Shown: one piece after another, positions 1 to 53,218 of the stretch
Layout: each line of letters starts with the position of its first letter
How positions within the stretch are numbered: position 1 is the first letter of the stretch
NCBI GenBank assembly: GCA_964655015.1
Contig: CAZZKR010000025.1
Location: 10,064-74,063 of the forward strand
Reading direction: 5' to 3'
Source: an uncultured Nitrososphaeria archaeon
GTDB taxonomy: Archaea; Thermoproteota; Nitrososphaeria_A; Caldarchaeales; Wolframiiraptoraceae
Length of the DNA stretch: 64,000 nt
The notes under the pieces: generated by a model
What the model saw: only the letters and a program-made list of their open reading frames with translations
Databases searched by the model: none
What the model was told of the DNA's origin: nothing
Made by a program: the position numbers and the translations under genes

Positions 1-748
1 CAGGGAGTTTATTAAGGACTCAAACGTCGCTAACGCGCCTATAATACCTGTATCTGGCCAGCATAACATAGGCATAGACGTCTTACTTTATGCAATCCAG
101 AAATACATTCCTACACCCAAAAGAAACTTGGACTTGCCATTTATGATGCCGATATTAAGGTCGTTTGATGTGAACTATCCGGGGATGCGTGCGGAGGAGC
201 TTAAGGGAGGAGTCATAGGCGGTTCGATAACTCAGGGAAAGGTGCGTGTGGGTGATGAGATAGAGATAGCGCCAGGTCTACCAAAGAACCCAGATAAACC
301 TCAAGGAGACTACGAACCTCTATACACTAGGGTTGTGAATATACGCGCAGGTGGTAGGGATGTCGAAGAAGCAGTAAGCGGAGGCCTCACGGGCATCGAA
401 ACGGAGCTCGACCCGTCGTTAACAAAATCAGATGGATTGACCGGAAATATTGCTGGTAAGCCAGGAACCTTGCCGCCAACGATGCATCACCTACACTTGG
501 AGTACGAACTCTTCAGCAGAGTCGTTGGTCTTGAAGGTAATGTTGAAGTTAAAGCGTTGTCGGAAAAAGAACAACTCGTCATAAATGCTTATTCTGCGGT
601 AGCAAAGGGAATAGTAACAAAAAAGACGGGTACGATGATAGAGTTTGAACTTACAAGACCCGTATGTGTCAATGTAGGCGACAGGGTGACCATAAGTAGA
701 AAGATAGGTGCCAGTTGGAGATTAATAGGTTATGGCATAGTGAGATAA
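1..748 (+). CDS. eif2g: Translation initiation factor aIF2 gamma subunit, C-terminal part (5' end lies outside window)
   Basis: Frame is open from nt 2; the upstream translation ...APIIPVSGQHNIGIDVLLYAIQKYIPTPKRN... continues into the 128..748 ORF (domains II/III of the EF-Tu-like aIF2gamma fold). No start codon in window. Confidence 0.8.
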   Translation, partial: REFIKDSNVANAPIIPVSGQHNIGIDVLLYAIQKYIPTPKRNLDLPFMMPILRSFDVNYPGMRAEELKGGVIGGSITQGKVRVGDEIEIAPGLPKNPDKPQGDYEPLYTRVVNIRAGGRDVEEAVSGGLTGIETELDPSLTKSDGLTGNIAGKPGTLPPTMHHLHLEYELFSRVVGLEGNVEVKALSEKEQLVINAYSAVAKGIVTKKTGTMIEFELTRPVCVNVGDRVTISRKIGASWRLIGYGIVR

Positions 749-1146
749 TCTACGCCTTGAGAGCGCTTGTTGATACGAGTTTTTTAATGAGGGTGGCAGA
801 ATTGGGTACAGATCTACTTGCGAGGGTTGAAGAAAAGCTGAACACGAAGATCGTCCCCGTCGTGATATCTAATGTCGTCGAAGAACTCAGGTCTCTTGCA
901 AAGGGTAAAGGTGTAAAGGCCAAAAGGGCAGGTCTAGCACTCGTCTTTTGTGAGATATTAGAACAATTAGATATGAATGTAAATGAAGAAGATGCGGATC
1001 TTGCCCTACTTAGAGTAGCTAAGGTATTAGGATTGCCTGTATTGACGTCGGATAGCGGTTTAAAGAAGATCCTGAGAGATGCCGGTGTCTGCACAATATA
1101 CGTCAACAAAAAAGGAGAAGTAAGGGTAGAGGGCTTCATACCCTGA
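715..1146 (+). CDS. PIN-domain protein (conserved neighbour of the rpoE operon)
   Basis: 143 aa with a ...RALVDTSFL... N-terminal PIN signature and acidic residues. Overlaps the aIF2gamma 3' end by 34 nt; the true start may be an internal Met. Confidence 0.55.
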   Translation: MEINRLWHSEIIYALRALVDTSFLMRVAELGTDLLARVEEKLNTKIVPVVISNVVEELRSLAKGKGVKAKRAGLALVFCEILEQLDMNVNEEDADLALLRVAKVLGLPVLTSDSGLKKILRDAGVCTIYVNKKGEVRVEGFIP

Positions 1147-1219
1147 AAAGTATATATTAAGCCAAGTGGAAAATGGCGTAACGAGTTAGTTTAATCAATG
1201 GTAACAGGGTGTCCAAGAG

Positions 1220-1801
1220 TTGTTCATGTTATTTGAGATTGAGGAGGCAATAGGTATCCCTCCAAAAGAATTTCACAAACCGTTGAAAGAAGTTGCTATG
1301 CAACAGTTGAAGAACTTATACGAAGGCATAATAGATGAAGAGCTCGGATACGTCATAGCGATAGTTGACGTTGATGTTGAACCAATTGGTTACCTCTTGC
1401 CTCGAGATGGTTCAACGTATCACAAGTATAGGCTAAAGCTTCTTACATATCTGCCGAAGGTCCAAGAAGTTGTCGAGGGGGAAATAGTTGAACTTACAGA
1501 TTTTGGTGCCTTTGTAAGGATAGGACCTGTGGACGCCTTACTGCATATATCTCAAATAATGGACGATTATTTAGATTATGATGAAAAACACTCTATACTA
1601 ACCGGGAAGAAAACCGGGAAAAAACTGATCGTAGGCGATAGTGTTAGGGCTAGAATAGTTGCGGTCTCTTTGACAAGTGGTGCTTCAGGCAAAATAGGTA
1701 TAACGACTAGACAACCGTTTTTGGGTAAGATTGAATGGATAAAGGAAGAAACAAAAAAGTTAAAGGGGTCTGAGAGTAAAGTTGAAACAAGCATCAGTTA
1801 G
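1220..1801 (+). CDS. rpoE: DNA-directed RNA polymerase subunit E (Rpo7/E')
   Basis: 193 aa with an Rpb7-like N-terminal domain followed by an S1 domain (…GEIVELTDFGAFVRIGPVDALLHISQ…). Canonical position before spt4. Confidence 0.85.
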   Translation: MFMLFEIEEAIGIPPKEFHKPLKEVAMQQLKNLYEGIIDEELGYVIAIVDVDVEPIGYLLPRDGSTYHKYRLKLLTYLPKVQEVVEGEIVELTDFGAFVRIGPVDALLHISQIMDDYLDYDEKHSILTGKKTGKKLIVGDSVRARIVAVSLTSGASGKIGITTRQPFLGKIEWIKEETKKLKGSESKVETSIS

Positions 1802-1982: not shown

Positions 1983-2898
1983 GATTGTGAAACATCGTTT
2001 TCAAGGACATTCAAGGATGCTTGCCTTGCGACGCACTTCTTTGAGAGAATTCTTAAAATCAAGGTTCACAAACGTCGATCCAAGTACTCTTCCAAAGAAA
2101 GCGAAGATTATAGGACATGTGGCGCTCGTAAGATTTCAAGATGAAGAAATAGATCCGAAAGAGTTAGGTAAAGCCATCCTCGAATTTTATCCGACGGTAA
2201 AGACGGTTTTAAGGTTGCGCGGCATCGTTGGCAAGCTAAGACAGCCGGTTGTAGAATTTATTTATGGTGACCCGAATACCGAAACAATTTACAAAGAATA
2301 CGGATACAAGTTTATGCTCGATGTATCGAAGTTGATGCTATGTCTAGGAAATAGTTACGAACGTCTTAGGACAGCAAAGTCCGTTAGGTCTGGAGAGGTG
2401 GTGGTTGATATGTTCGCTGGCATAGGTCAGTTTTCAATACCTTGCGCCGTGATCTCAAGACCTTCTAAAGTCTATGCCATAGAAATTAATGAGGAGGCTT
2501 ACAGGTATCTTAAAATAAACACCGTGCTTAACAACGTTGAGTATGTTGTGGAACCTATGCTTGGTGACTGTAAAGAATTGACCCCAACGCTTGGTCGCAT
2601 AGCAGACAGAATCATAATGGGTTTTTTTGGGGGAACGATAGAAGCCCTACCGGCCGCTCTGAAAGCTGTTAAACCTGAAGGTACTGTGATTCATTTTCAT
2701 GAACTCGTGAGAAGGGGGAATGGAAAAGATGAGCTATGGAAGGAGATAAGTGAACTGTGTCACCGTCTAGGCTATACAAGCACACTAATAGGTTTAAGGA
2801 TTGTAAAATCTTACTCTGCAACAAAGGAACATGTGGTTATAGATTTCAAAGTGAGGCCTTCTTGTGATTTATCGGCAGTAACTTCTAATGTTGCGTAA
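1963..2898 (+). CDS. trm5: tRNA (guanine37-N1)-methyltransferase Trm5/Taw2 family (Met-10+ like)
   Basis: 311 aa with an SAM-MTase motif (VVDMFAGIGQFSIP) and the Trm5 D1-D2-MTase architecture. Confidence 0.75.
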   Translation: MRLKSNEIVKHRFQGHSRMLALRRTSLREFLKSRFTNVDPSTLPKKAKIIGHVALVRFQDEEIDPKELGKAILEFYPTVKTVLRLRGIVGKLRQPVVEFIYGDPNTETIYKEYGYKFMLDVSKLMLCLGNSYERLRTAKSVRSGEVVVDMFAGIGQFSIPCAVISRPSKVYAIEINEEAYRYLKINTVLNNVEYVVEPMLGDCKELTPTLGRIADRIIMGFFGGTIEALPAALKAVKPEGTVIHFHELVRRGNGKDELWKEISELCHRLGYTSTLIGLRIVKSYSATKEHVVIDFKVRPSCDLSAVTSNVA

Positions 2899-2906
2899 AA
2901 CTTTAA

Positions 2907-3518
2907 TTGAGAATTGATGGGCGCTTATGTATGGAAATAGTAATCGAGGAACTTGCAAAATCCATCGTCGCACTCTTTATCATAGTTGATCCTATCGGAA
3001 ACGTACCAATATTCATGGGTTTAACCAGTAATATGAGTCGGGAAGAAAGACGTAAAACATTCGAGACGGCTATAATCATCTCTTTCGTTCTACTTAATCT
3101 CTTTGCATTAGCCGGTCAAAGCATCCTCTCAATATTTAATATATCCATTCACAGCTTCAAGATAGCGGGAGGTCTTTTACTATTCATAATCTCAATGAAA
3201 ATACTCCTTCATGGTATGTGGGAGGAAAAACACCTGTCCAGCAGAAGTATAGGTGTCGTACCTATCGCATTCCCTTTGCTGGTTGGGCCTGGTGCTATAA
3301 CTCTAACGATAGTTAACATCCAAACGGCCGGTGTTCTTGTGACCGTAATATCTGTTATAATTGTTTTGCTCATAACTTGGTTGATACTCAGGGCTATAGA
3401 ACCCATAAATAGCTTCCTAGGCGAGACGGGATCTGTCGTTATTTCAAGGTTGATGGCGGTCTTTATAGCGGCAATAGCGATCGAATTCATCGCAAGCGGG
3501 GTTAGATTTATGCTCTAG
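2907..3518 (+). CDS. MarC-family (UPF0056) integral membrane protein
   Basis: 203 aa, multi-TM, with a MarC-like N-terminus (…IVDPIGNVPIFMGLT…). Confidence 0.7.
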   Translation: MRIDGRLCMEIVIEELAKSIVALFIIVDPIGNVPIFMGLTSNMSREERRKTFETAIIISFVLLNLFALAGQSILSIFNISIHSFKIAGGLLLFIISMKILLHGMWEEKHLSSRSIGVVPIAFPLLVGPGAITLTIVNIQTAGVLVTVISVIIVLLITWLILRAIEPINSFLGETGSVVISRLMAVFIAAIAIEFIASGVRFML

Positions 3519-3566
3519 AAGGGTGCCGTGCCTATAACTTGATTAGTAACCTTAAAGTAAAATTAA

Positions 3567-4688
3567 TTGAGCGTACCCGTGAGACGCCTATTCGCAACAC
3601 CGATATGGCAGAACCGAGAGGTTAGGGAGAGGCTTAAGTGGTATTACAGCGTTATGAGTGATTTAAAGCCCGCAAAGTTTCTTATCGCAAAAAGGATACC
3701 CTGTGAAATAAGCATAGAGCGTAGCTCAGACGAGAGGCTTTGGGAAGAGCATGAAAAGCTCAGCAAAACCTTTAACGAAATTTTAAACGATATAAAGAAT
3801 AATAAGATGTTATTTGATGAATTAAAACCGGTGACTGTAAGCTACATCGACCTGAAGATTGAGATTGCTAAGAGGATGCTAAAAAGTTGCCATTTCTGCG
3901 AGTGGAAGTGTAAAGTGAATAGATATGAAAGCAAAAAGCTCGGCAGCTGTAGGGTTGATAGTAAATCCAGAATCTCCACATGGTTCCATCATTTTGGAGA
4001 AGAACCACCTTTAGTAGGCTATGGTGGTTCAGGAACTATATTCTTCGCGGGTTGCACCTTTAGATGCGTCTTTTGTCAGAATTGGGATATATCACAAGAC
4101 CCCCTAAATGGTGTGGAGGTTGATGGAAAGAGATTGGCCCTCATAATGAAAGAGTTGAGAACTACTGGTGCGTTAAATATCAACTTCGTAGGTGGCGAGC
4201 CTACACCAAACCTTCATACAATACTTGAAGGCATGAAGTATCTTGAGACAAACGTGCCGATGCTCTGGAACAGTAACATGTACATGTCTTTAGAAAGTAT
4301 GAGGCTTTTGGTCGACGTCATAGATATATGGTTACCGGACTTCAAATATGGAAACGACAATTGTGCAATTAGGCTATCAAAAGTTCCACGTTACTTCGAA
4401 GTCGTAGCAAGGAACCATAAGATAGCGCATGATTATGGTGACATGATAATCAGACACCTTGTGTTGCCAAACCATCTGGATTGTTGCACTAAACCTGTAC
4501 TAAAGTGGATATCCGAGAATTGTCCTAGAGCCCTAGTAAATATAATGGAGCAGTATAGGCCTGAGTACATAGTCGCCGAAAGATCTGAAGAGTATCCAGA
4601 TATAGCGCGTAGGCCAACATATCAAGAGATGGAGGAAGCATACGCATTTGCCGACTCTTTAAACATCATCTACAAACCTGTATCCTAA
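3567..4688 (+). CDS. Radical SAM protein, PflX-like (pyruvate formate-lyase activase homologue)
   Basis: 373 aa with a CTFRCVFCQNW radical-SAM cysteine motif, preceded by a Cys-rich segment CHFCEWKC…GSCRVD. Confidence 0.75.
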   Translation: MSVPVRRLFATPIWQNREVRERLKWYYSVMSDLKPAKFLIAKRIPCEISIERSSDERLWEEHEKLSKTFNEILNDIKNNKMLFDELKPVTVSYIDLKIEIAKRMLKSCHFCEWKCKVNRYESKKLGSCRVDSKSRISTWFHHFGEEPPLVGYGGSGTIFFAGCTFRCVFCQNWDISQDPLNGVEVDGKRLALIMKELRTTGALNINFVGGEPTPNLHTILEGMKYLETNVPMLWNSNMYMSLESMRLLVDVIDIWLPDFKYGNDNCAIRLSKVPRYFEVVARNHKIAHDYGDMIIRHLVLPNHLDCCTKPVLKWISENCPRALVNIMEQYRPEYIVAERSEEYPDIARRPTYQEMEEAYAFADSLNIIYKPVS

Positions 4689-7419: not shown

Positions 7420-7427
7420 TGAAAAAG

Positions 7428-7513
7428 CGCCGGGGCTGGGATTCGAACCCAGGCGACCCTTATCGGGTCACAGGCTCTCAAGGCCTGCGCCTTGTCCGCT
7501 AGGCTACCCCGGC
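7428..7513 (-). tRNA. tRNA-Ser (anticodon UGA), 86 nt with a long variable arm
   Basis: The reverse complement reads GCCGGGG-TA-GCCTAGCGGACAAGGC-G-CAGGC-CTTGAGA-GCCTG-TGACCCGATAAGGGTCGC-CTGGGTTCGAATCCCAG-CCCCGGC-G. It has a 7-bp acceptor stem, a TTCGAATCC T-loop and anticodon TGA. The 18-nt variable arm is typical of Ser. No CCA is encoded. Confidence 0.85.
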
Positions 7514-7535: not shown

Positions 7536-8587
7536 CTAAATCGAATCATTAAAATTTTTACTGCCCTTTTTCCAGACAGAAGGATAAGTGCCCCTATCCA
7601 TAATAACTCTATCAGTATCTACTGCTATCCCTTTAGTAGAGTCTAAGATTTCTTCGGTACTCATCTGCGCCTTACCAAGGGCAACCAGCTCGCCTTTTAG
7701 CGTCATGATTGCCACTTCGTCACCGCGTTTTATCCCCTCGTCAAGCTTAGATATGCCAACTACCGCTAGGTCGGCTCCATGACATATGGCATCAACGGCT
7801 GAATCTAATACATAGACTTTCGGTAAAAATCTGACAGCAGTCTCCACCGGCTGAACGACCTTCCTCAAAGTACGTTCTTCGCCATTTTCTTTATAAAGCT
7901 TGACAGCCTCGTACACATCTAATAACGTGACTGAACATCCCTCATCATAGGGTCCCGCCCTTGTCCTTCTAAGTTCTTGCATATGTGCTCCGCATCCTAG
8001 GTATAGCCCTATATCGTAACAATACTTTCTTATGTAAGTTCCACCAGAGCAAGCTATCCTCATCAGGACGTCCCTGCCGTTTCGTTCGATTATTTCTGCC
8101 GAATATATTGTCCTTATCCTAGGCTTTCTTGCAACGGACGACCTTACCGGTGGTATCTGGTATATCTGCCCAGTAAAGAGTTTTATTGCTTCAAAGAGTT
8201 TTTCGTCAGAAACATCATCATGTAACCTCATAAGACAGATGTATTCTTTCCCAGTTTGCATTATAGTCCTAGCACATTTTGTAGAGTCTTCTAAAAGTAT
8301 TGGTAACACACCAGAAACGGCCGGATGTCCCCAGGCTTAAAGCCTCCTAGGGTCCCGCCATGACCAGCCCGCTCGACACCCAACAAATCTTTTATTTTTG
8401 AAGATACCTCGTGACTTGTAGGCCCCCTTGGTTTATCGAGGTTAATGACGCCTAACCTTAAGTACATCCTGAGAGGCCTCTCATAGGGATTGTATCCATA
8501 CTTCGGGTCTGTTTCAGCTTCAAGCCTCACCACTACCTTTCTTTCATGTTGCCAGGGTGGGACGATTCCCCCAACAGCACTATTCAA
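7536..8587 (-). CDS. cbf5: H/ACA RNP pseudouridine synthase Cbf5, interrupted by a 20-nt intron: join(8587..8347, 8326..7536), about 343 aa
   Basis: Two adjacent ORFs (8291..8587 and 7536..8309) encode the N- and C-parts of Cbf5 (TruB catalytic domain plus PUA domain). Removing 8327..8346 restores [18 protein letters not shown]. Confidence 0.75.
8327..8346 (-). other. Putative archaeal mRNA (bulge-helix-bulge type) intron in cbf5
   Basis: On the minus sense the 20-nt GAGGCTTTAAGCCTGGGGAC separates CCCTAG and ATCCGG. Excising it restores frame and the conserved TLDP motif. It has an internal hairpin GGCT-TTA-AGCC. cbf5 introns are known in Crenarchaeota. Confidence 0.55.
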
Positions 8588-15726: not shown

Positions 15727-16908
15727 ATGAACATAGGAGCCGGCAAGACTTTGGTCATTAAAGGTCCTGCATCTGTAAAGTTACTATCAGGCTCTGGAAA
15801 AGTCTTCGGGTATACATTAACTCAGAAAAAGCCGCTCTTCGTAAGAGATTCAAGAGCGCTACCGATATTCACGGATGTAGGTATGGAGGTTGAGCTAAAC
15901 CTAGGAGAAGGTTCGTCCTTCGAGATCGTAGACCGAGACACTGTACCAGACGATTGGAAGACTCTGGTATCTCAAACTATTAAGAACCATAAGAAGATTG
16001 TGGTGATGGGAGGGACAGATTCAGGGAAAACATCGTTGACCACTTTTATCATAAACTCTTTATTGGGCGAAGGTAAAAGGACATGCTTAGTAGACTTAGA
16101 CTTAGGTCAATCAAATATATGTCCCCCCACTACTGTGGGGTCTGTTCTAACGACAAAACAAGTCCCAGACGTTTACCAACTTAAGGCAGATTTTATCGTA
16201 CCTGTCGGCTTCACATCACCTTCATTTGCAAAGGAGTATCATCTCAAAAAAACTAGCGAACTCCTGAGTTACACAATCAATGAAGAAGTTTACGCAGTTA
16301 TCGATTGTGATGGTTGGATAGAAGGTAAGGATGCGACGGAACATAAGATTAACCTCCTTAACGTAATTAGGCCCTCGCTGGTGGTATTCCTTGAAAAATC
16401 ACAAGAAAAAGTTGAAAGTTACTGTAGGGATATCGGCATAGAGTGCGCCGTTGTAAGTAAGTCAGAATACGTGCACAAGCGAGATCATGAAGCACGCAAA
16501 AGGCTTAGAGAAAGTTCGTTCAGGAGGTACTTGAAAGACGGCTCAATAAAGACTATACCGCTTTCTTGGCTTAATCTTTCAACAATACCTGCTGAGGCGC
16601 ATAATGTAACAATTAATCCTTTACAATACGTAAAGTCGCTGATAGAAGCTTACAATGCGCAATCCGCAAATGTGCCGCCGCTGGACGTCGAATCGCTTTC
16701 AAAAAATAAGATGGGTGTCCTTTCATACATGTATGATGCTGATGGGCGGTGTTTAGGTATAGGGTTAGTAAGCGATATAGATAGTAAGCGAAATACTATT
16801 AAAATATACTCAAAGGTTGAAACAATTCCCAAGAAACTCGTTATAGGTTGCATGCTGTTATCTTATCATGGTGACGAACTATTTGTTTGGACAACGCAAC
16901 ATATTTAA
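15727..16908 (+). CDS. clp1: Polynucleotide 5'-kinase Clp1/Grc3 homologue
   Basis: 393 aa with a P-loop (GGTDSGKTSLTTF) in the central domain. N- and C-terminal domains are Clp1-like. Confidence 0.7.
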   Translation: MNIGAGKTLVIKGPASVKLLSGSGKVFGYTLTQKKPLFVRDSRALPIFTDVGMEVELNLGEGSSFEIVDRDTVPDDWKTLVSQTIKNHKKIVVMGGTDSGKTSLTTFIINSLLGEGKRTCLVDLDLGQSNICPPTTVGSVLTTKQVPDVYQLKADFIVPVGFTSPSFAKEYHLKKTSELLSYTINEEVYAVIDCDGWIEGKDATEHKINLLNVIRPSLVVFLEKSQEKVESYCRDIGIECAVVSKSEYVHKRDHEARKRLRESSFRRYLKDGSIKTIPLSWLNLSTIPAEAHNVTINPLQYVKSLIEAYNAQSANVPPLDVESLSKNKMGVLSYMYDADGRCLGIGLVSDIDSKRNTIKIYSKVETIPKKLVIGCMLLSYHGDELFVWTTQHI

Positions 16909-17471
16909 TCTAATTCTAAAAGCCTCGCTGCTTGTTTCGTTGCAAGCAGCCTAGCACTTTCTGGTGGTAAGGTGACGATATCATATTGTCTAAAAGGTCC
17001 ATAGTTCTTCATGTCTTCGCATACAATCTTTGGGAACGTTTGCATGAAACAAACTATTCTGTACTTTGCTAATCTCTCTTCAATTTTTGGAATTCTGAGC
17101 TCATACGCAATCGAGTTTATTCGTTTCCTATATTCATAAATTAACTTAGAAAGTTCTTCAACAAAACGTCTCTCCACACCTAAAAGGTTCTCGAGTTGCT
17201 CACCTTTAAGTAGGGCATGGATGATCTTTCTAAACCTTATTTCAAATAATGAGGATAATAATTTCTTGACAACGTCCAGCTCAGCATGTTTGACTAATGT
17301 TGATATTGCTTTTTTATCAGATACTTTCAGTTGTTGCCTTACCGAAGATGCGTAAGCATACAATTTGGTCTCAAAATCTTGCGGGATTAATGCGAGGTTT
17401 TCTTGCTCCCTCTCTTTAAGCCACACGTTCATAAGTTCGTCATAAAAACCTTCTACTGTTCCCTCCGACAT
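16905..17471 (-). CDS. gins51: GINS complex subunit Gins51-like
   Basis: 188 aa, helical A-domain plus a C-terminal B-domain (…YGPFRQYDIVTLPPESARLLATKQAARLL…). Co-oriented immediately downstream of priS, a common archaeal pairing. Confidence 0.55.
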   Translation of the reverse strand: MSEGTVEGFYDELMNVWLKEREQENLALIPQDFETKLYAYASSVRQQLKVSDKKAISTLVKHAELDVVKKLLSSLFEIRFRKIIHALLKGEQLENLLGVERRFVEELSKLIYEYRKRINSIAYELRIPKIEERLAKYRIVCFMQTFPKIVCEDMKNYGPFRQYDIVTLPPESARLLATKQAARLLELD

Positions 17472-17510
17472 CCCACTAATATTATGACATCCCGCTCTTA
17501 AACTGTTACC

Positions 17511-18674
17511 CTATTGTGTGAGGGTCGCGATACCTTTACAAAGTAACAGGACGGCCAAGCAAGTCGGTATCTTTACGCCCTCGTTTTTATAAGGTCCATA
17601 CCATTCCCCACATATGCGGATTTTTGGCATGTAGATTACGTGTACCCTACACGGCTCATCAGGCATTACGACGGTATCCACAAATGGGTTAAACTGCTCT
17701 AAAGCGTCAGGCTCAAGTCTTTTTGCCAGAAAGCCCGTCTTTCCGTTAAGAGTGTTAGCAAGTCTTAGAAGCCGATGAATGTCTGTCGTAACGATTGTGT
17801 CTATCAAACTTCTTTCTTCTTCCACGGCCAACGTTACGATTGCTTTTATGACATTGGGCTTTAGGGTCTCCCATTTAGGCGAGACCAGCCAAGACGTCAA
17901 CAACGAATCCTTAATCTGTAACAATTTATTATACTCCCTGTTCCCGATCAGCTTTCTCAGTCTCTCAGCGATGTGTGGCTTATTAAGGTCTTTAATAACC
18001 TCGAAGGTCCCCCTTGCCAACCTGCCCCTCCATGAACCATCTGTATACTCAAGCGTAGCTGAAGGATAGCGCCTTTTGCCTGTGGGTAATCCATAAAGGT
18101 TAGGGTCAAGACCGTTTCCGAGGATGTAGTCAGTAATCTCCTTTCTTGACACTTGATCCAATGTAAAAAGTTTCTCGTCATTTACTATTACATGGAAACC
18201 CCTGTTCCCTGAGAAATTCACCAAAATCTTCGAATAGGGTATACCGAAATCCATCTCAAGGAAGTCCAAAAGTTTGTAAACTTCCCCTTTTGCCGCCTCT
18301 ATACAGTTTTCGCAAACCCAGTCGGTACGCTTAACTTTCATGCTGCCACAATTATTACACTGCTCTGACTCAGGCGGTAGCGTGCTCTTACAATCTTCGC
18401 ATATCGAAAAATCATGCTTTTCTTTACATGGAAGGTTTAGATGGTCGGCATCTATGTCGAATATAAGCTCCGCACCCAACCACACCTTTTCTTCCATGGG
18501 GGCCTGAGGATATTGGTAATGGGCTGCTGAATGGTACATGTGTAAAGGTGTTACTTTTTTTATTAACTCAAATAGCTCGGATGAGTTTTTTAACGATATG
18601 TGTCTTATCATGATTTTTTGTCCAAAGGTGAAATAACCAAATTCTCTCCTCTCAATCATGTGAGGTACGTACAC
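17511..18674 (-). CDS. priS: DNA primase small (catalytic) subunit PriS
   Basis: 387 aa with the catalytic ELIFDIDADH motif and zinc knuckle cysteines (CEDCKS…CNNCGS…CENC). Confidence 0.85.
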   Translation of the reverse strand: MYVPHMIERREFGYFTFGQKIMIRHISLKNSSELFELIKKVTPLHMYHSAAHYQYPQAPMEEKVWLGAELIFDIDADHLNLPCKEKHDFSICEDCKSTLPPESEQCNNCGSMKVKRTDWVCENCIEAAKGEVYKLLDFLEMDFGIPYSKILVNFSGNRGFHVIVNDEKLFTLDQVSRKEITDYILGNGLDPNLYGLPTGKRRYPSATLEYTDGSWRGRLARGTFEVIKDLNKPHIAERLRKLIGNREYNKLLQIKDSLLTSWLVSPKWETLKPNVIKAIVTLAVEEERSLIDTIVTTDIHRLLRLANTLNGKTGFLAKRLEPDALEQFNPFVDTVVMPDEPCRVHVIYMPKIRICGEWYGPYKNEGVKIPTCLAVLLLCKGIATLTQ

Positions 18675-48452: not shown

Positions 48453-49748
48453 ATGGAACTTTACGAGCTTAGGACGCAAAAATCGCGAATTCTTCATGAT
48501 GAAGCGAGAAAGTTCTTGCCTGGGGGCGTTACTTATGCAATAAAGTACTGGGAACCGTATCCGATTTATGTCTCCAGAGCTAAAGGTAGCAGGATATGGG
48601 ATGTTGATGGAAACGAATATTTAGATTTCTGGATGGGACACGCAGCGATCATAATGGGACATGCGTATGAGCCAGTCATCAGGGCAGCGAAAGAACAGCT
48701 TGAGCTGGGTGCCCATCTTGGTTTCTGCCATGAGTGGGAGATAAAGTTAGCAGAAATTGTGACGAAGATGGTGCCAAGCGTAAGGTTATTCAGAGCCACA
48801 AACAGCGGTACCGAGGCAAACATGTATGCCATTAGGCTTGCTAGGGCTTACACGGGGAAAAGCAAGATAGCAAAGTTTGAAGGACACTGGCACGGTGGTT
48901 ACGACGCTCTACATAAGGCTGTTAACCCACCGCTAGACAAACCAGCATCATTGGGTTTAACGGACTGTGTTATGAATGATACGATAGTTTTGCCATTCAA
49001 CGACCTCGATGGTGTGAGGCAGAAGGTAAAAGGTGAAAATCTTGCATGTATAATTCTAGAACCTGTTATGGGATCCAACGGCATGATACCTGCCGATAGA
49101 GAATTCCTTAAAGGGCTCAGAGAACTTTGCGACGAGCTTGACATCCTTTTGATATTCGATGAAGTAATAACGGGCTTTAGGTTGGCCAAGGGTGGTGCGC
49201 AGGAGTACTACGGCGTATTGGCAGATATTACTACGTTCGGTAAGGTCCTCGGTGGGGGCATATTTCCTGCTGGTGGGTTTGGAGGTAGAGAGGATATCAT
49301 GGAATTACTCGATCAGACAAAAAGGAAGCATTATGAGATGTCGTTTCACGGTGGAACCTATGCTGGGAATCCGCTTACGGCCAGGGCAGGTTACACGTTG
49401 TTAAGCGAGCTGATAAAGGGCGATGCGTATCCAAAGATAAACGCACTTGGTGAGAAAGCCAGAAAAGGGTTGGAGGACGTTTTCAGCAGACATAAGGTAA
49501 GTGCTCATGTTACTGGCGTAGGGTCTCTATTTGCAGTTCACTTCACAAAAGAAAAACCAAGAGACATTAGGAGCGCAATAGGTGATACCAAACTCGCAAA
49601 AGATTGCTTTTACTTTATGCTTAACAACAACATTTTATGCATGAAACCTAGCAAGCAGGTGTTTGCCCCCTCAGTGGCGCATTCTGAGGAAGATATAGAA
49701 CGCTTGCTCTCGGTTATGGAGGAGTTTTTAAGGCAAGTACCGATTTAA
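48453..49748 (+). CDS. hemL: Class-III aminotransferase, glutamate-1-semialdehyde 2,1-aminomutase-like
   Basis: 431 aa PLP fold; SGTEAN…FDEVITGFR…, with a Lys in the GKVLGGG region. Confidence 0.65.
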   Translation: MELYELRTQKSRILHDEARKFLPGGVTYAIKYWEPYPIYVSRAKGSRIWDVDGNEYLDFWMGHAAIIMGHAYEPVIRAAKEQLELGAHLGFCHEWEIKLAEIVTKMVPSVRLFRATNSGTEANMYAIRLARAYTGKSKIAKFEGHWHGGYDALHKAVNPPLDKPASLGLTDCVMNDTIVLPFNDLDGVRQKVKGENLACIILEPVMGSNGMIPADREFLKGLRELCDELDILLIFDEVITGFRLAKGGAQEYYGVLADITTFGKVLGGGIFPAGGFGGREDIMELLDQTKRKHYEMSFHGGTYAGNPLTARAGYTLLSELIKGDAYPKINALGEKARKGLEDVFSRHKVSAHVTGVGSLFAVHFTKEKPRDIRSAIGDTKLAKDCFYFMLNNNILCMKPSKQVFAPSVAHSEEDIERLLSVMEEFLRQVPI

Positions 49749-50137
49749 CAGGCCTGCCAACTCTCTGGTATAATGCTGGCTATGTCTTTTATCTCTCTTA
49801 TACCAATCTTTCTCACTATTGATAATTTTCTCATATATGATACGTCGACTTCTTTCATGCGGCCCGACAGGTTGACAACTACTCTTCTAGCGATGCTTGC
49901 CCCTTCAGAATCCAGATCAGTCAGCACTATTAACTTAGCCGTACTGTTGTTCTCAGCCCAGCTTAGCAGGGCCCTTATGGAAGTGTACTTAAGTATTGTA
50001 CCTTTTATGCCCAGTCTTTTAAGGCATTCTTCGTCACGCTTGCCCTCGACTAATATGACTGCCCCTGACTCGCTTTCAGCCCTTAAGTCGCTAACAATTT
50101 TAAGTACTTTCTCAGTTAGTTCTTGATCTCGTTGCAT
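49745..50137 (-). CDS. Small Toprim-domain protein
   Basis: 130 aa with the Toprim acidic motifs (ILVEGKRDE and LTDLDSEG). Confidence 0.65.
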   Translation of the reverse strand: MQRDQELTEKVLKIVSDLRAESESGAVILVEGKRDEECLKRLGIKGTILKYTSIRALLSWAENNSTAKLIVLTDLDSEGASIARRVVVNLSGRMKEVDVSYMRKLSIVRKIGIREIKDIASIIPESWQAC

Positions 50138-50324
50138 CTAAATTTCCCCACTACCCTTGGACTAAAAAATCTTTTTTTGAAAAGTTTGGTACGTTTTTCC
50201 GATGGAGATAGTCATTTTATGAGATTTTATTTGACAAAAATCGCTCATGGGTACCTCTTATGAATATACAGCCGTATTAATAACGGATTTCTGATACCTT
50301 CATTTTTACCTTGCTCCAAGTAAA

Positions 50325-50332
50325 GGAGGTGG
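50325..50332 (+). promoter_or_regulatory. Shine-Dalgarno-like GGAGGTGG upstream of the RHH gene
   Basis: AAGGAGGTGG lies about 7-8 nt upstream of the GTG at 50340. Confidence 0.5.
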
Positions 50333-50339
50333 ATAATAG

Positions 50340-50486
50340 GTGAAGGTCGTAACCGTTCACCTTCCAGAGGTTTACCTCGACGTGATAGACGAGCTTGTAA
50401 GAAGAAAGCTTTACCCCAACAGGGCTGAGGCAATAAGAACGGCAGTTAGAGATTTCATAATGGAGGAGATGCCGGCAAGTGAGTGA
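50340..50486 (+). CDS. Ribbon-helix-helix (CopG/CdrS-like) protein, 48 aa, translationally coupled to ftsZ
   Basis: Not in the ORF track. The GTG-initiated VKVVTVHLPEVYLDVIDELVRRKLYPNRAEAIRTAVRDFIMEEMPASE has an RHH beta-strand-helix-helix pattern. Its stop overlaps the ftsZ GTG start by 8 nt. Confidence 0.6.
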   Translation: MKVVTVHLPEVYLDVIDELVRRKLYPNRAEAIRTAVRDFIMEEMPASE

Positions 50487-51630
50487 GATTATGCTCCCTG
50501 GTTCTAATGATGTTGAAAGAGTTGACGGGATTCGTATAAAGCTAGTCGGTATAGGTGGTGCTGGCTGTAACACGATCAGCCGACTGGCATCACAGGGATT
50601 GAATGGTGTTGTAACGATCGCTGCAAACACTGACGTACAACATCTAGAGATGATTAGAGCTCATCACAAAATCGTGCTTGGAAAAAACACGACAAGGTTT
50701 AGGGGCTCTGGCGGAGACCCGGAAAAAGGTAGGATAGCAACCGAAGAATGCGAGGACGAATTTAGAAATTTGCTCAGCGACGCCGACATAGTTTTTGTGA
50801 TGGCAGGCTTGGGCGGTGGCACTGGTACTGGAGGTGCGCCTGTGATTGCTTCGATAGCAAAAGAGTTAGGGGCTATAGTTATCAGCGTAGCGACCTTGCC
50901 TTTCAAATTCGAAGGTAATGTTCGAAAGAGAATAGCAATACAAGGATTGCAAAGGCTAAAAGAAGTATGCAACACCGTGGTGCTAATAGATAACAATAAG
51001 TTGCTCGATTTCTATCCACAGTATGAGTTAAGGACTGCCTTCTCATTGGTTGACGATGTCATAAACAATATGATGCTTAGTATAACCGAGTCGATAGTGA
51101 AACCGAGCTTGATAAACATAGACTACGCAGATTTCAAAGCACTTGTTGAAAGGGGTAACTTGGCATCTTTAGGTATAGGCAGATCCTCGTCACCAAACAG
51201 GGCTGAAGAAGCCACTTTCAATGCCTTGCAATCACCGCTACTCGACATAACCTACGATAAGCTGTCGGGCGCAATAGTACACGTCACAGGTGGTGAAGAT
51301 ATGAAGCTGAGCGAAGCTGCAAGACCAGCAGAGATAATATCGGAGCTAATGGGCATGGACACTCTTGTAATATGGGGCGCGAGGATCGATAACTATTATG
51401 CTTCGAGCATACAGGTATCGTTAATACTCACGGGGCTTAGTGACAAATTCAGCAGCAGTGCTGAAATTGATGCTGTAAACTTACCAAAAACGAATGAGGA
51501 ATTCAAAATCCCACAACCTGCCGTCCCTGCTCAACCCACTGTCGACAATGAGTTAGAATATGAGTTAGAAAGAATAGTGGCCGAGCTCGGAATTAGAAGA
51601 CTTTCAATAGAAAATGCACACGCACACTGA
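50479..51630 (+). CDS. ftsZ: Cell division GTPase FtsZ
   Basis: 383 aa with tubulin/FtsZ signatures (GIGGAGCNTISRL and GGGTGTGGAPVIA), a T7-loop region and a C-terminal tail. Confidence 0.85.
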   Translation: MSEIMLPGSNDVERVDGIRIKLVGIGGAGCNTISRLASQGLNGVVTIAANTDVQHLEMIRAHHKIVLGKNTTRFRGSGGDPEKGRIATEECEDEFRNLLSDADIVFVMAGLGGGTGTGGAPVIASIAKELGAIVISVATLPFKFEGNVRKRIAIQGLQRLKEVCNTVVLIDNNKLLDFYPQYELRTAFSLVDDVINNMMLSITESIVKPSLINIDYADFKALVERGNLASLGIGRSSSPNRAEEATFNALQSPLLDITYDKLSGAIVHVTGGEDMKLSEAARPAEIISELMGMDTLVIWGARIDNYYASSIQVSLILTGLSDKFSSSAEIDAVNLPKTNEEFKIPQPAVPAQPTVDNELEYELERIVAELGIRRLSIENAHAH

Positions 51631-51661
51631 TCCAACTTTCAGACTTCCCTAATTTTATTTT

Positions 51662-53218
51662 TTATGCTAAACCAAGTTTTGCCATTTGTTTTGATATTTC
51701 GCCGTCAGTTACTTTTCTGAATAATGGCTCTGGTTTGTTAATTTTATGTTGCGGTTTAATTGGTATTCTGAACTCTTCCCATCTTACAGTTTCTGGAGTT
51801 AAGTTTAGGTTCATCATATTCATGAGTTTATGGGCTGTAAAAGGCAGATACGGTACCATAAGGACACAAAGTACCTTAACTACTTGCATCGCCGTGTATA
51901 TTGCTCTAGGCGCATTCTCCGCTACACTCCATGGCTTCATGTCATTCAAGTATCTATTCCCTAGCTGGGCTAGCTCCAGAATAATCTTTAAGCCAGACTT
52001 AAAACGACAGTTCTCCACTCTATTCTTAAACATGGCAGCTAATCTTTCCATATTTTCCAAAAGTTCTTTATCTTGTGACTCAAGCGCACCCGGATCAGGA
52101 ACTGCGCCCCCAAACTTTGTATGAACGAATAGCAACACTCTATGAATGAAGTTACCTAGTGTCGCTACGAGTTCATTGTTTATTTTTGCTTGGAAATCCT
52201 TCCACTTAAAGTCAGAGTCCTTAGTTTCGGGAGCTATTATCGCGGCGTAGTACCTAATTAGATCAGGCTCATAATTTTCAAGCATTTCATGGAGCCAAAT
52301 TACCCAACCTCTACTTGTTGAAAGTTTTTGCCCCTCTAGGTTCACGAACTCATTCACGACAACGTTATAGGGCAGAATGTAGTCACCATGCGCTATAAGT
52401 ATGGCTGGAAACAGGATTGTGTGAAAGAAAAGGTTGTCCTTTCCTATAAAACAGTAAAGCCTCGTCTCTGGATCTAACCAAAACTTTTTCCATGCATCCG
52501 GCTGTCCAACTTGTATGCTCCAGTCTTTAGTTGCTGATATGTAGCCCAGCAGATTTTCAACCCAGTTGTAAAGTACTTGTCCCTCTGCTCCGGGGAAGGG
52601 CGCGGGTGGTCCCCAATCATAATCCCTTGTTATGTCTTTGTCCTTTAGCCCCTCCTTCTCCAACCAAGATATGGTCTTATTATAGGTCGATTTTCTCCAG
52701 AACTTCTTAGGTTTCACATAATTAAGTACTTCCTGTGTCAAAGCAGACAGTTTTAGAAAGTAATGGTCCTTTTCCACAACTATTGGTTTGCCACCGCACA
52801 AGGTACAAACAGGGTCTATCAGCTCAATCGCCTCATACCAGCTTGCACACACCTCGCAAGCCTCACCATATTGGTCAGGCGCTCCACAGACTGGACATGT
52901 GCCCTTTACGAATCTATCAGGCAACACTTTTTCATCCTTTGGGCAATACCATTGCTTTATTCTTTTCTTGTAAATGTAACCTTTTTCCCACAATCTACTG
53001 TAAAACTCGTGCACTGTGTCGTAATGGATTTTTTTAGAAGTTCTGGAGAATATGTCGAAACTTATCCCAAGCTTGGCGAAGGTGTCTCTTTGAATTGGAT
53101 AAAACATATCACACAGCTGTTGCGGGGTCATGCCCTTTCTCATGGCTTCAAGCACAATGCTTGAGGCGTTTTCATCGGTTCCGCATACGAACAAGACCTC
53201 GTGCCCGAGCATCCTCAT
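51662..53218 (-). CDS. metG: Methionyl-tRNA synthetase. The track ORF starts at an internal ATG; the conserved N-terminus including the HIGH motif is encoded in-frame upstream to about 53341 without a start codon
   Basis: 518 aa with Zn knuckles (CPVCGAP…CEVC), KMSKS-region homologues and the anticodon-binding domain. The upstream in-frame translation reads …VLRILVTAALPYSYAPRHFGHLSGAYLPADIFARFMRMLGHEV…. Confidence 0.8.
   Translation of the reverse strand: MRMLGHEVLFVCGTDENASSIVLEAMRKGMTPQQLCDMFYPIQRDTFAKLGISFDIFSRTSKKIHYDTVHEFYSRLWEKGYIYKKRIKQWYCPKDEKVLPDRFVKGTCPVCGAPDQYGEACEVCASWYEAIELIDPVCTLCGGKPIVVEKDHYFLKLSALTQEVLNYVKPKKFWRKSTYNKTISWLEKEGLKDKDITRDYDWGPPAPFPGAEGQVLYNWVENLLGYISATKDWSIQVGQPDAWKKFWLDPETRLYCFIGKDNLFFHTILFPAILIAHGDYILPYNVVVNEFVNLEGQKLSTSRGWVIWLHEMLENYEPDLIRYYAAIIAPETKDSDFKWKDFQAKINNELVATLGNFIHRVLLFVHTKFGGAVPDPGALESQDKELLENMERLAAMFKNRVENCRFKSGLKIILELAQLGNRYLNDMKPWSVAENAPRAIYTAMQVVKVLCVLMVPYLPFTAHKLMNMMNLNLTPETVRWEEFRIPIKPQHKINKPEPLFRKVTDGEISKQMAKLGLA

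Follow-up and report, generated by a model that had tools for sequence, protein, structure and literature searches.

A CdrS-type ribbon-helix-helix gene overlapping an FtsZ2-type gene in Caldarchaeales: a probable two-gene cell-division operon

Does the short open reading frame (ORF) that runs into the start of ftsZ in a 64,000-nucleotide stretch of archaeal DNA (contig CAZZKR010000025.1 of assembly GCA_964655015.1, positions 10,064 to 74,063; hereafter the window) encode a protein, and if it does, is this protein a regulator of cell division of the kind described in haloarchaea? The frame has 48 codons, and its product, MKVVTVHLPEVYLDVIDELVRRKLYPNRAEAIRTAVRDFIMEEMPASE, resembles the ribbon-helix-helix (RHH) DNA-binding proteins. 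The observations described here suggest that the frame and ftsZ probably constitute a two-gene cell-division operon, in which a CdrS-type regulator is translationally coupled to an FtsZ2-type tubulin homologue.

The first part of the question is answered by comparison with related loci, which were found by scanning one genome per species with the window FtsZ as the reference. Five of these loci (L001-L005), with FtsZ proteins that are 87-95% identical to that of the window, belong to metagenome-assembled genomes (MAGs) of 'Candidatus Terraquivivens' or to a related MAG. The small ORF is present in all five. Summed over the five comparisons with the orthologous loci, the codon changes amount to 51 synonymous and 4 non-synonymous ones, and the differences in the DNA alignment are almost confined to third codon positions. 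The RHH gene is real and is under strong purifying selection. A frame of only 48 codons with a GTG start might have been a chance frame or the 5' leader of ftsZ, from which no protein is made. This has next to no probability, as it is already refuted by the ratio of codon changes; besides, the product scores above the Pfam gathering threshold, gives a confident structure model and matches 978 cluster representatives at E <= 1e-3. The conservation in relatives, on which the preliminary description of the locus had made its interpretation depend, is thus found.

The fold of the 48-residue protein has been approached in three ways. The Pfam RHH_1 model (PF01402) matches it with E = 6e-7 and 29.6 bits, the gathering score being 20.5. 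Its AlphaFold2 model, made with 32 homologues, has a predicted local distance difference test score (pLDDT) of 87.8 and shows residues 1-9 in an extended conformation, followed by helices at residues 10-21 and 28-43. In a Foldseek search of PDB structures, every one of the top matches is an RHH domain, either of ParD or of NikR, with template modelling (TM) scores of 0.72-0.79. This agrees with the preliminary description, in which the product had been taken for a CopG-like RHH protein with a strand followed by two helices.

Among the curated NCBIfam families, the closest to the window protein is CdrS (NF058555, TransRegCdrSHalo), which is matched below its cut-off with E = 1.9e-10 and 40.6 bits. 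The NikR models come next (~29 bits); the aCcr1 model (NF053762) gives 17.1 bits, which misses its cut-off of 60 bits, and the ParD model 12.3 bits. CdrS is likewise the top family for all ten relatives tested, which come from the TACK group, Asgard archaea, Bathyarchaeota, contigs resembling mobile genetic elements (MGEs), a tailed virus and a haloarchaeal plasmid. The window protein is thus predicted to be a CdrS-type RHH protein, that is, a DNA-binding regulator of transcription. By sequence, its closest solved structures are residues about 2-44 of the Pyrococcus and E. coli NikR proteins (E = 6e-4 to 2e-3), which have the same DNA-binding RHH fold. NikR, however, is a protein of ~135 residues with a C-terminal nickel-binding (ACT-like) domain, the whole of which is absent from the window protein. 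An identity with NikR does not fit, since the protein stops at residue 48 and the NikR models match with only their first 46 or so positions.

Many of the homologues are named 'antitoxin ParD1/3/4' or 'type II toxin-antitoxin system ParD family antitoxin' by JGI and NCBI. These names, together with the ParD antitoxins among the top structural matches and the occurrence of RHH copies in MGE-like contexts, would fit a ParD/CopG-type antitoxin or plasmid-type repressor that stands beside ftsZ by accident. Such an identity is very unlikely. The ParD model scores far below that of CdrS, and no ParE/RelE toxin gene is adjacent to the RHH gene either in the window, where the neighbours are Toprim, FtsZ and methionyl-tRNA synthetase (MetRS) genes, or at the chromosomal loci examined. 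Moreover, the gene differs from toxin-antitoxin modules in being single-copy, in keeping its synteny and in hardly varying across the whole order. Some databases also label homologues as nickel-responsive regulators. Neither label fits a protein that lacks the C-terminal domain of NikR and whose gene has no toxin gene beside it; cdrS-like is a better name for the small gene than 'ParD antitoxin' or 'putative nickel-responsive regulator'.

The partner of the regulator has the Pfam Tubulin and FtsZ_C domains, contains GLGGGTGTGGAP and scores 339.1 bits on TIGR00065, above the cut-off of 295.2. As its closest solved structure by sequence is the FtsZ1 of M. jannaschii, a tree is required to assign it to a family. 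A query of the protein database with the antibody peptides of H. volcanii FtsZ1 and FtsZ2 (bioRxiv 10.1101/2020.06.04.133736) returned no candidate. The references are haloarchaeal FtsZ genes on large PLSDB replicons, which were typed by the terminal peptides quoted in the same work by Liao et al. The Natronorubrum protein (L016) ends in ...DDIDFVD, similar to the FtsZ1 peptide ...EDIDYVE. The Haloarcula protein (L018) has ...DGFGDPR and ...NGIDVIR, similar to both FtsZ2 peptides. The Salinibaculum protein (L017), in which the N-terminal DDFGDP is similar to the FtsZ2 peptide, groups with that of Haloarcula with 100% bootstrap and is FtsZ2-like.

In a small, distance-based tree (neighbour-joining, 307 columns, 200 bootstraps), the FtsZ2 references of which are haloarchaeal plasmid copies typed by their terminal motifs only, an FtsZ1 clade with 100% bootstrap consists of M. 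jannaschii FtsZ1, PDB entry 9V7V and the protein of Natronorubrum, and the window FtsZ, its Terraquivivens orthologues and two further RHH-linked FtsZ proteins of Nitrososphaeria join the haloarchaeal FtsZ2-type proteins with 95%. The motifs SLINxDYAD and VIWGARI are common to the window protein and the FtsZ2 type, and the FtsZ orthologues of two other Nitrososphaeria loci (L008 and L010) have the same (E/D)LG(I/V)(K/R) tail as the window protein. The case for FtsZ2 rather than FtsZ1 is therefore good but not final. It agrees with Kohtz et al. 2022 (PMC9723716), where the complement of Caldarchaeales is given as FtsZ2 together with CdvBC. An affiliation with FtsZ1 or CetZ, which the preliminary description had considered as the contrary outcome, did not occur.

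The arrangement of the two genes is given in Table 1. The coordinates that the preliminary description had assigned to the ORF, to its GGAGG and to its overlap with ftsZ are all correct. It had also called the ORF unannotated, which holds for the raw window and fails for the public MAGs, where the orthologue appears as a 'ribbon-helix-helix domain-containing protein'. The stop codon TGA of the RHH gene (50484-50486) lies inside the beginning of ftsZ, so that the two frames share the 8 nt GTGAGTGA. This overlap is unchanged in all six sequences of the Terraquivivens DNA alignment, and an alternative ftsZ start, the ATG at 50491, is missing in L004 and L005. For these two reasons the GTG at 50479 is the likelier start of ftsZ. 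At the Shine-Dalgarno-like site of the RHH gene, AAGGAGGTGGAT is the same in five of the six loci, and L003 reads AAAGAGG. The second, internal GGAGG is likely to be the ribosome-binding site for the coupled translation of ftsZ. There can be no terminator between the genes, as their reading frames overlap. The T-rich run that follows ftsZ is a candidate archaeal oligo-T terminator of a two-gene transcript, and the methionyl-tRNA synthetase gene (metG) on its 3' side is convergent.

Table 1. Positions of the features of the RHH-ftsZ locus, of other genes in the window and of homologues at other loci
Feature	Sequence	Coordinates	Strand	Remarks
Small Toprim-domain protein, 130 aa	Window	49745-50137	-	PRK04017 family (Pfam/NCBI models); divergent from the RHH-ftsZ promoter region
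Conserved element CCGTATTAATAACGG	Window	50272..50286	+	GTATTA core 50274-50279, 66 nt 5' of the start codon
GGAGG, Shine-Dalgarno-like site of the RHH gene	Window	50325..50329	+	10 nt 5' of the GTG; read from the sequence
cdrS-like RHH gene	Window	50340..50486	+	GTG start, 48 aa, MKVVTVHLPEVYLDVIDELVRRKLYPNRAEAIRTAVRDFIMEEMPASE; coordinates checked in the sequence
Internal GGAGG, within the RHH coding sequence	Window	50462..50466	+	12 nt 5' of the ftsZ start; invariant in the six-way alignment
ftsZ, FtsZ2 type, 383 aa	Window	50479..51630	+	GGGTGTG signature; C-terminal ...AELGIRRL... tail
T-rich run TTTTATTTTTT	Window	51653..51663	+	23 nt 3' of the ftsZ stop; read from the sequence
tRNA-Ser	Window	7427-7513	-	
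Cbf5/TruB-like ORF	Window	7536-8309	-	TruB_N profile positions 71-149 only
Replication cluster (Gins51, primase small subunit) and adjoining Clp1-like P-loop kinase	Window	16905-18674; 15727-16908	-; +	
GTATTA(C)/GTAATAC element	L029; L022; L023; L008; L021	about -58; -58; -85/-73; -73; -93		Relative to the RHH start
RHH homologue	L006, Thermofilaceae MAG GCA_038863185.1	641-805		MGE-like context
RHH homologue	L007, Logan contig	103-267		MGE-like context
RHH homologue	L012, JGI 3300038414	3001-3159		MGE-like context
RHH homologue	L013, JGI 3300041472	1077-1235		MGE-like context
RHH homologue, 82 aa	L014, IMGVR_UViG_3300038416_000533	3396-3644		Viral contig
Terminase-like and portal-like ORFs (452 aa; 486 aa)	L014	5474-6832; 7034-8494		By size and position only
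RHH homologue	L015	374-484		Viral contig
RHH (111 aa) and ftsZ	L017, Salinibaculum sp. KK48 plasmid, NZ_CP129994.1	2036-3730		RHH 60 nt before ftsZ
FtsZ2-type gene	L018, Haloarcula sinaiiensis pHsi204	2438-3628		
FtsZ, 459 aa, apparent RHH-FtsZ2 fusion	L024, Halanaeroarchaeum sulfurireducens plasmid pHSR2-01	1120-2499		NZ_CP008875.1 25339-26718
Stand-alone RHH homologues	L019-L023: Freyarchaeum CP147778.1, Bathyarchaeota, Hodarchaeota, Thorarchaeota, Thermoprotei MAG GCA_021162845.1	3001 in each		

The coupling extends beyond the closest relatives. The order RHH-ftsZ is kept in L001-L005, L008-L011 and L029/L030. In L029 and L030, which represent more distant Caldarchaeales (RHH 77% and FtsZ 62-63% identical), the 8-nt overlap is the same, with the stop codon TAG in place of TGA; metG is kept downstream, and an unannotated gene of 123 codons takes the position of the Toprim gene upstream. 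In another lineage of Nitrososphaeria (L010/L011) the two genes overlap by 4 nt, and in yet another (L008/L009) they are separated by a 1-nt gap and followed by metG and AdoHcyase. The 8-nt overlap is thus conserved across Caldarchaeales, and the same order with tight spacing occurs in other Nitrososphaeria. In all Nitrososphaeria loci compared (L001, L005, L029, L030, L008 and L010) the RHH protein is better conserved than FtsZ; in L029, the identities are 77% and 62%, respectively. RHH homologues that are 70-98% identical to the window protein are found in sequences of Aigarchaeota/Nitrososphaeria and in sequences labelled Thermofilaceae.

These results make it possible to outline how the operon would work. 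The RHH protein most likely dimerises and inserts its N-terminal β-strand (KVVTVHL) into the major groove of DNA. It would then control the transcription of genes for division and the cell cycle, and its own promoter is probably among the targets. The overlapping frames, the internal GGAGG and the lack of a terminator-like run before the end of ftsZ all suggest that a single mRNA would serve for both proteins and that ftsZ would be translated in coupling with the regulator gene. Binding to DNA and regulation of division genes are expected by homology with CdrS; the joint transcript, the choice of targets and an autoregulation via the GTATTA element at -66 are likewise inferred.

Overlapping, coupled frames are also typical of proteins that form a complex, and the RHH protein might instead be an adaptor that links DNA to FtsZ filaments, that is, a centromere binder similar to TubR or ParR, or a nucleoid-occlusion factor, for which the coupling would provide a stoichiometric complex. 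RHH proteins serve as such centromere-binding adaptors in the ParMRC and type Ib partition systems. Two haloarchaeal plasmids lend this idea some colour. In the 459-residue FtsZ of the Halanaeroarchaeum plasmid, which is of the FtsZ2 type in the tree, the N-terminal stretch aligns with the RHH family; RHH_1 matches residues 12-47 with 18.7 bits, a little under the gathering score, and the whole looks like a fusion of an RHH protein with FtsZ2. Divergently upstream of this fusion-like ftsZ lies a RelE/ParE toxin gene. The Salinibaculum plasmid, in turn, has a separate CdrS-like RHH gene in front of an FtsZ2-type gene. The extra FtsZ2-type genes of the Salinibaculum and Haloarcula megaplasmids could be plasmid-borne division or partition modules. 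An adaptor function in the window is nevertheless improbable. The haloarchaeal CdrS acts as a transcription factor with 18 sites in chromatin immunoprecipitation sequencing (ChIP-seq), including the ftsZ1 promoter, and with effects on the transcriptome (PMC8406309). In addition, the family is maintained in Asgard archaea, Bathyarchaeota and a Thermoprotei MAG at loci where no ftsZ stands next to it, and the RHH match of the fusion-like protein is under the Pfam gathering score.

A candidate operator lies upstream of the RHH gene. The block CCGTATTAATAACGG changes little among the six Terraquivivens loci, and the window contains it in exact form only once. With its TATTAATA/GTATTA element, this block may be the operator of the operon, the TATA region of its promoter or both, although the evidence is suggestive only and the element may simply belong to the TATA region. 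The GTATTA core matches the published aCcr1 box, which has been described as AGTATTA, as A(T/G)G(A)TA(G)A(T/G)TACN and as a 9-bp palindrome ending in TAC (PMC9976892, PMC9976878). GTATTA or TAATAC occurs 58-93 nt 5' of the RHH gene in six of nine lineages (P = 0.0018 against dinucleotide-preserving shuffles), a motif that was picked with the published one in mind and to which AT-rich promoters are permissive; the core is carried by 9% of GC-matched windows. The element of the Thermoprotei locus L023 is a perfect 8-bp inverted repeat, GTATTACCGCGGTAATAC. Upstream of the bathyarchaeotal gene (L020), there is instead an inverted repeat built from three copies of CGTATTTA. The exact 7-mer AGTATTA is present in only one of eight lineages tested and is not enriched; L029, added later, also has it. 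In the window, CCGTATTAATAACGG with up to 3 mismatches has 4 matches where 1.66 are expected, a difference that is not significant, so that no regulon can be defined.

How far does the regulator depend on the neighbourhood of ftsZ? A profile of the distant RHH members matches 6,570 proteins. Among the best 120 of these, the named matches are from Lokiarchaeota/Promethearchaeota, Thor-, Hermod-, Hod-, Hel-, Freya- and Jordarchaeia, Bathyarchaeia and Thermoprotei, and no chromosomal haloarchaeal CdrS is found in that set. A multiple alignment unites the window protein with the Asgard, bathyarchaeotal and haloarchaeal plasmid copies and with the experimentally studied aCcr1 homologue of the virus SMV3. 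The homologues at the five stand-alone loci of Table 1 are about 55-65% identical to the window protein, as judged by inspection of the alignment rather than by computation. At the Thermoprotei locus, the RHH gene lies beside PHP, metG and AdoHcyase genes with no ftsZ between them; the metG and AdoHcyase neighbours, which are those of L008, suggest that ftsZ has been lost or moved and that the RHH gene has stayed. A MiaB-like radical-SAM gene is located 5' of the RHH gene both there and in the bathyarchaeotal locus.

The stand-alone copies raise the possibility of a more general regulator, of the cell cycle or of stress, within an aCcr1/CdrS superfamily, whose main targets in this organism are genes other than ftsZ, for instance those of CdvB/C, the adjacency to ftsZ being an inherited accident. 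The weak and consistent matches to the aCcr1 model, the alignment with the SMV3 protein and the upstream element that resembles the aCcr1 box are what such a regulator would show, and Caldarchaeales do encode CdvBC (PMC9723716). It is unlikely all the same. The overlap with ftsZ is kept to the nucleotide across Caldarchaeales, which argues for selection on co-expression, CdrS outscores aCcr1 in every member tested, and there is no cdv gene among the annotated ORFs of the window.

Several points weigh against the two-gene division operon itself. Experimental support for the CdrS family comes from Halobacterium and Haloferax, and none of it from a member of the TACK group. The window protein is only ~34% identical to the haloarchaeal plasmid-borne CdrS-like protein, and its 40.6 bits on the CdrS model are to be compared with a cut-off of 100 bits. 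As the score is well below this value, the protein is not a member of the CdrS equivalog, the model of which is haloarchaea-specific; the RHH protein of the Salinibaculum plasmid itself scores only 57.9 bits. The RHH homologue stands away from ftsZ at all five loci looked up (L019-L023), so that the role of the family does not depend on ftsZ in cis and may exceed division. An unbiased test for k-mers shared by eight upstream regions gave nothing significant compared with shuffles. The size and references of the FtsZ tree, and the way in which the GTATTA motif was chosen, have been noted above and point in the same direction. On balance, the conserved overlap, the FtsZ2-type partner and the place of CdrS as the best curated family make the module cdrS-ftsZ-like, as had been proposed from the first inspection of the locus.

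Copies of the regulator are also found on contigs that resemble mobile elements. Four homologues, each aligning over the full length with 65-70% identity to the window protein, come from the Thermofilaceae MAG, the Logan contig and the two JGI data sets listed in Table 1. They lie in tight same-strand arrays of small ORFans with a 404-residue MoxR-like AAA ATPase (phrog_1297), which in L006 and L007 are accompanied by a DUF2201 protein similar to von Willebrand factor A domains; PHROGs scans of the neighbours detect nothing but the MoxR-like ATPase. Judging by gene content, the contexts of L006 and L012 would be those of a virus or mobile element rather than of a chromosome. A scan of viral contigs with a single MGE-type RHH query gave no match, and a scan with an alignment as the query gave two contigs (L014 and L015). 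In the first of these, the first 37 residues of the RHH protein are 59% identical to the window protein and include YPNRAEAIR. Possibly, a virus has captured a CdrS-like regulator here, in parallel with the viral aCcr1 homologues of Sulfolobales.

Can all these proteins be traced to one source? It may be speculated that a single ancient and near-invariant family of archaeal RHH cell-cycle regulators links the haloarchaeal CdrS with the crenarchaeal aCcr1. The family would have begun as the coupled partner of FtsZ2, would have kept a palindromic operator of the GTATTAC type and autoregulation across the TACK and Asgard groups, and would have lived on by itself wherever the gene was separated from ftsZ or FtsZ disappeared, as perhaps in L023; viruses and mobile elements would have captured it repeatedly in order to manipulate the division of their hosts, for which aCcr1 in Sulfolobales is the demonstrated case. 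We regard this scenario as tentative and rather doubtful as a whole. The conservation, the likeness to aCcr1, the mobile copies and the fusion support a single ancient family of RHH division regulators but do not prove it. Yang et al. 2023 have proposed that control of the aCcr1/CdrS type is older than the split between FtsZ and ESCRT; the RHH protein that is more conserved than FtsZ, the stand-alone copies, the element resembling the aCcr1 box and the virus-like copies together support this proposal. Since Aigarchaeota possess both FtsZ2 and CdvBC, the idea is directly testable in these organisms, where one regulator might act over both division machineries.

The preliminary description had considered the module unexpected, and had suggested that it either extends the cdrS-ftsZ pair beyond Euryarchaeota or says something about the placement of the organism. 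Neither suggestion survives. According to Darnell et al. 2020 (PMC7439475), cdrS and ftsZ2 co-occur in members of every archaeal clade other than DPANN. Pende et al. 2021 (PMC8178401) note ftsZ2 as 'frequently with parD', as genomic context without functional interpretation; their 'parD' is most likely the same gene pair under another label, given that JGI and NCBI call members of the RHH family ParD. FtsZ2 is furthermore listed for Caldarchaeales (PMC9723716). As to placement, the host is simply an aigarchaeon of the order Caldarchaeales near 'Ca. Terraquivivens', as its FtsZ identities indicate. The pairing is real, but modules of the same kind have already been described across archaea, and by itself the locus adds one more lineage to those in which the cdrS-ftsZ2 module is known, a routine result that is mainly of help for annotation. 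Mildly new are the conservation of the RHH protein above that of FtsZ, its link to aCcr1, the mobile copies and the fusion-like protein.

Pfam annotation of 30 other ORFs of the window yields only housekeeping genes, with no Cdv, SepF or MinD among them. The PRK04017 family, to which the Toprim protein upstream of the operon belongs, is uncharacterised and distantly similar to RNase M5. The Cbf5/TruB-like frame beside the tRNA-Ser gene lacks the N-terminal part of the protein, as only a portion of the TruB_N profile is matched; this is consistent with the split or intron-containing cbf5 that had been mentioned earlier for this DNA. The replication cluster and the Clp1-like kinase represent an ordinary archaeal housekeeping context.

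Two known systems can be compared with the operon. The first is the CdrS-FtsZ2 operon of Halobacteria (Halobacterium salinarum VNG0194H-VNG0192G; Haloferax volcanii HVO_0582-HVO_0581). In these two genera the cdrS gene shares a transcript with ftsZ2, and its product controls division, for which it is essential or important (PMC7439475, PMC8406309). There, as in the window, a small single-domain RHH gene lies directly 5' of an FtsZ2-type gene on the same strand. The spacing is similarly tight: the haloarchaeal pairs overlap or have a 1-3 nt gap (3 nt in H. volcanii), and the window has its 8-nt overlap. The differences lie in the surroundings and in the protein. In the window, there is no cdrL upstream, and a divergent Toprim gene is found instead. 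The RHH protein has 48 residues, is not acidic, unlike its haloarchaeal counterpart, and comes from a thermophile of the TACK group. Moreover, unlike Halobacteria, the host of the window also carries CdvBC according to the literature.

The second system is aCcr1, which occurs in Sulfolobales and in their viruses and is about as small an RHH protein as that of the window. It represses cdvA, and it is not linked to ftsZ, since Sulfolobales have no ftsZ. Across the RHH family the aCcr1 model gives weak hits of 17-26 bits (cut-off 60), with CdrS always higher. The aCcr1 homologue of SMV3 nevertheless has ~48% identity over 43 residues to a hand-built query close to the family consensus. Homologues on contigs of viruses or mobile elements are common to aCcr1 and to the RHH family of the window. 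Finally, the GTATTA(C) element 5' of the window gene resembles the aCcr1 box, and this box in turn resembles the CdrS motif (Yang et al. 2023).

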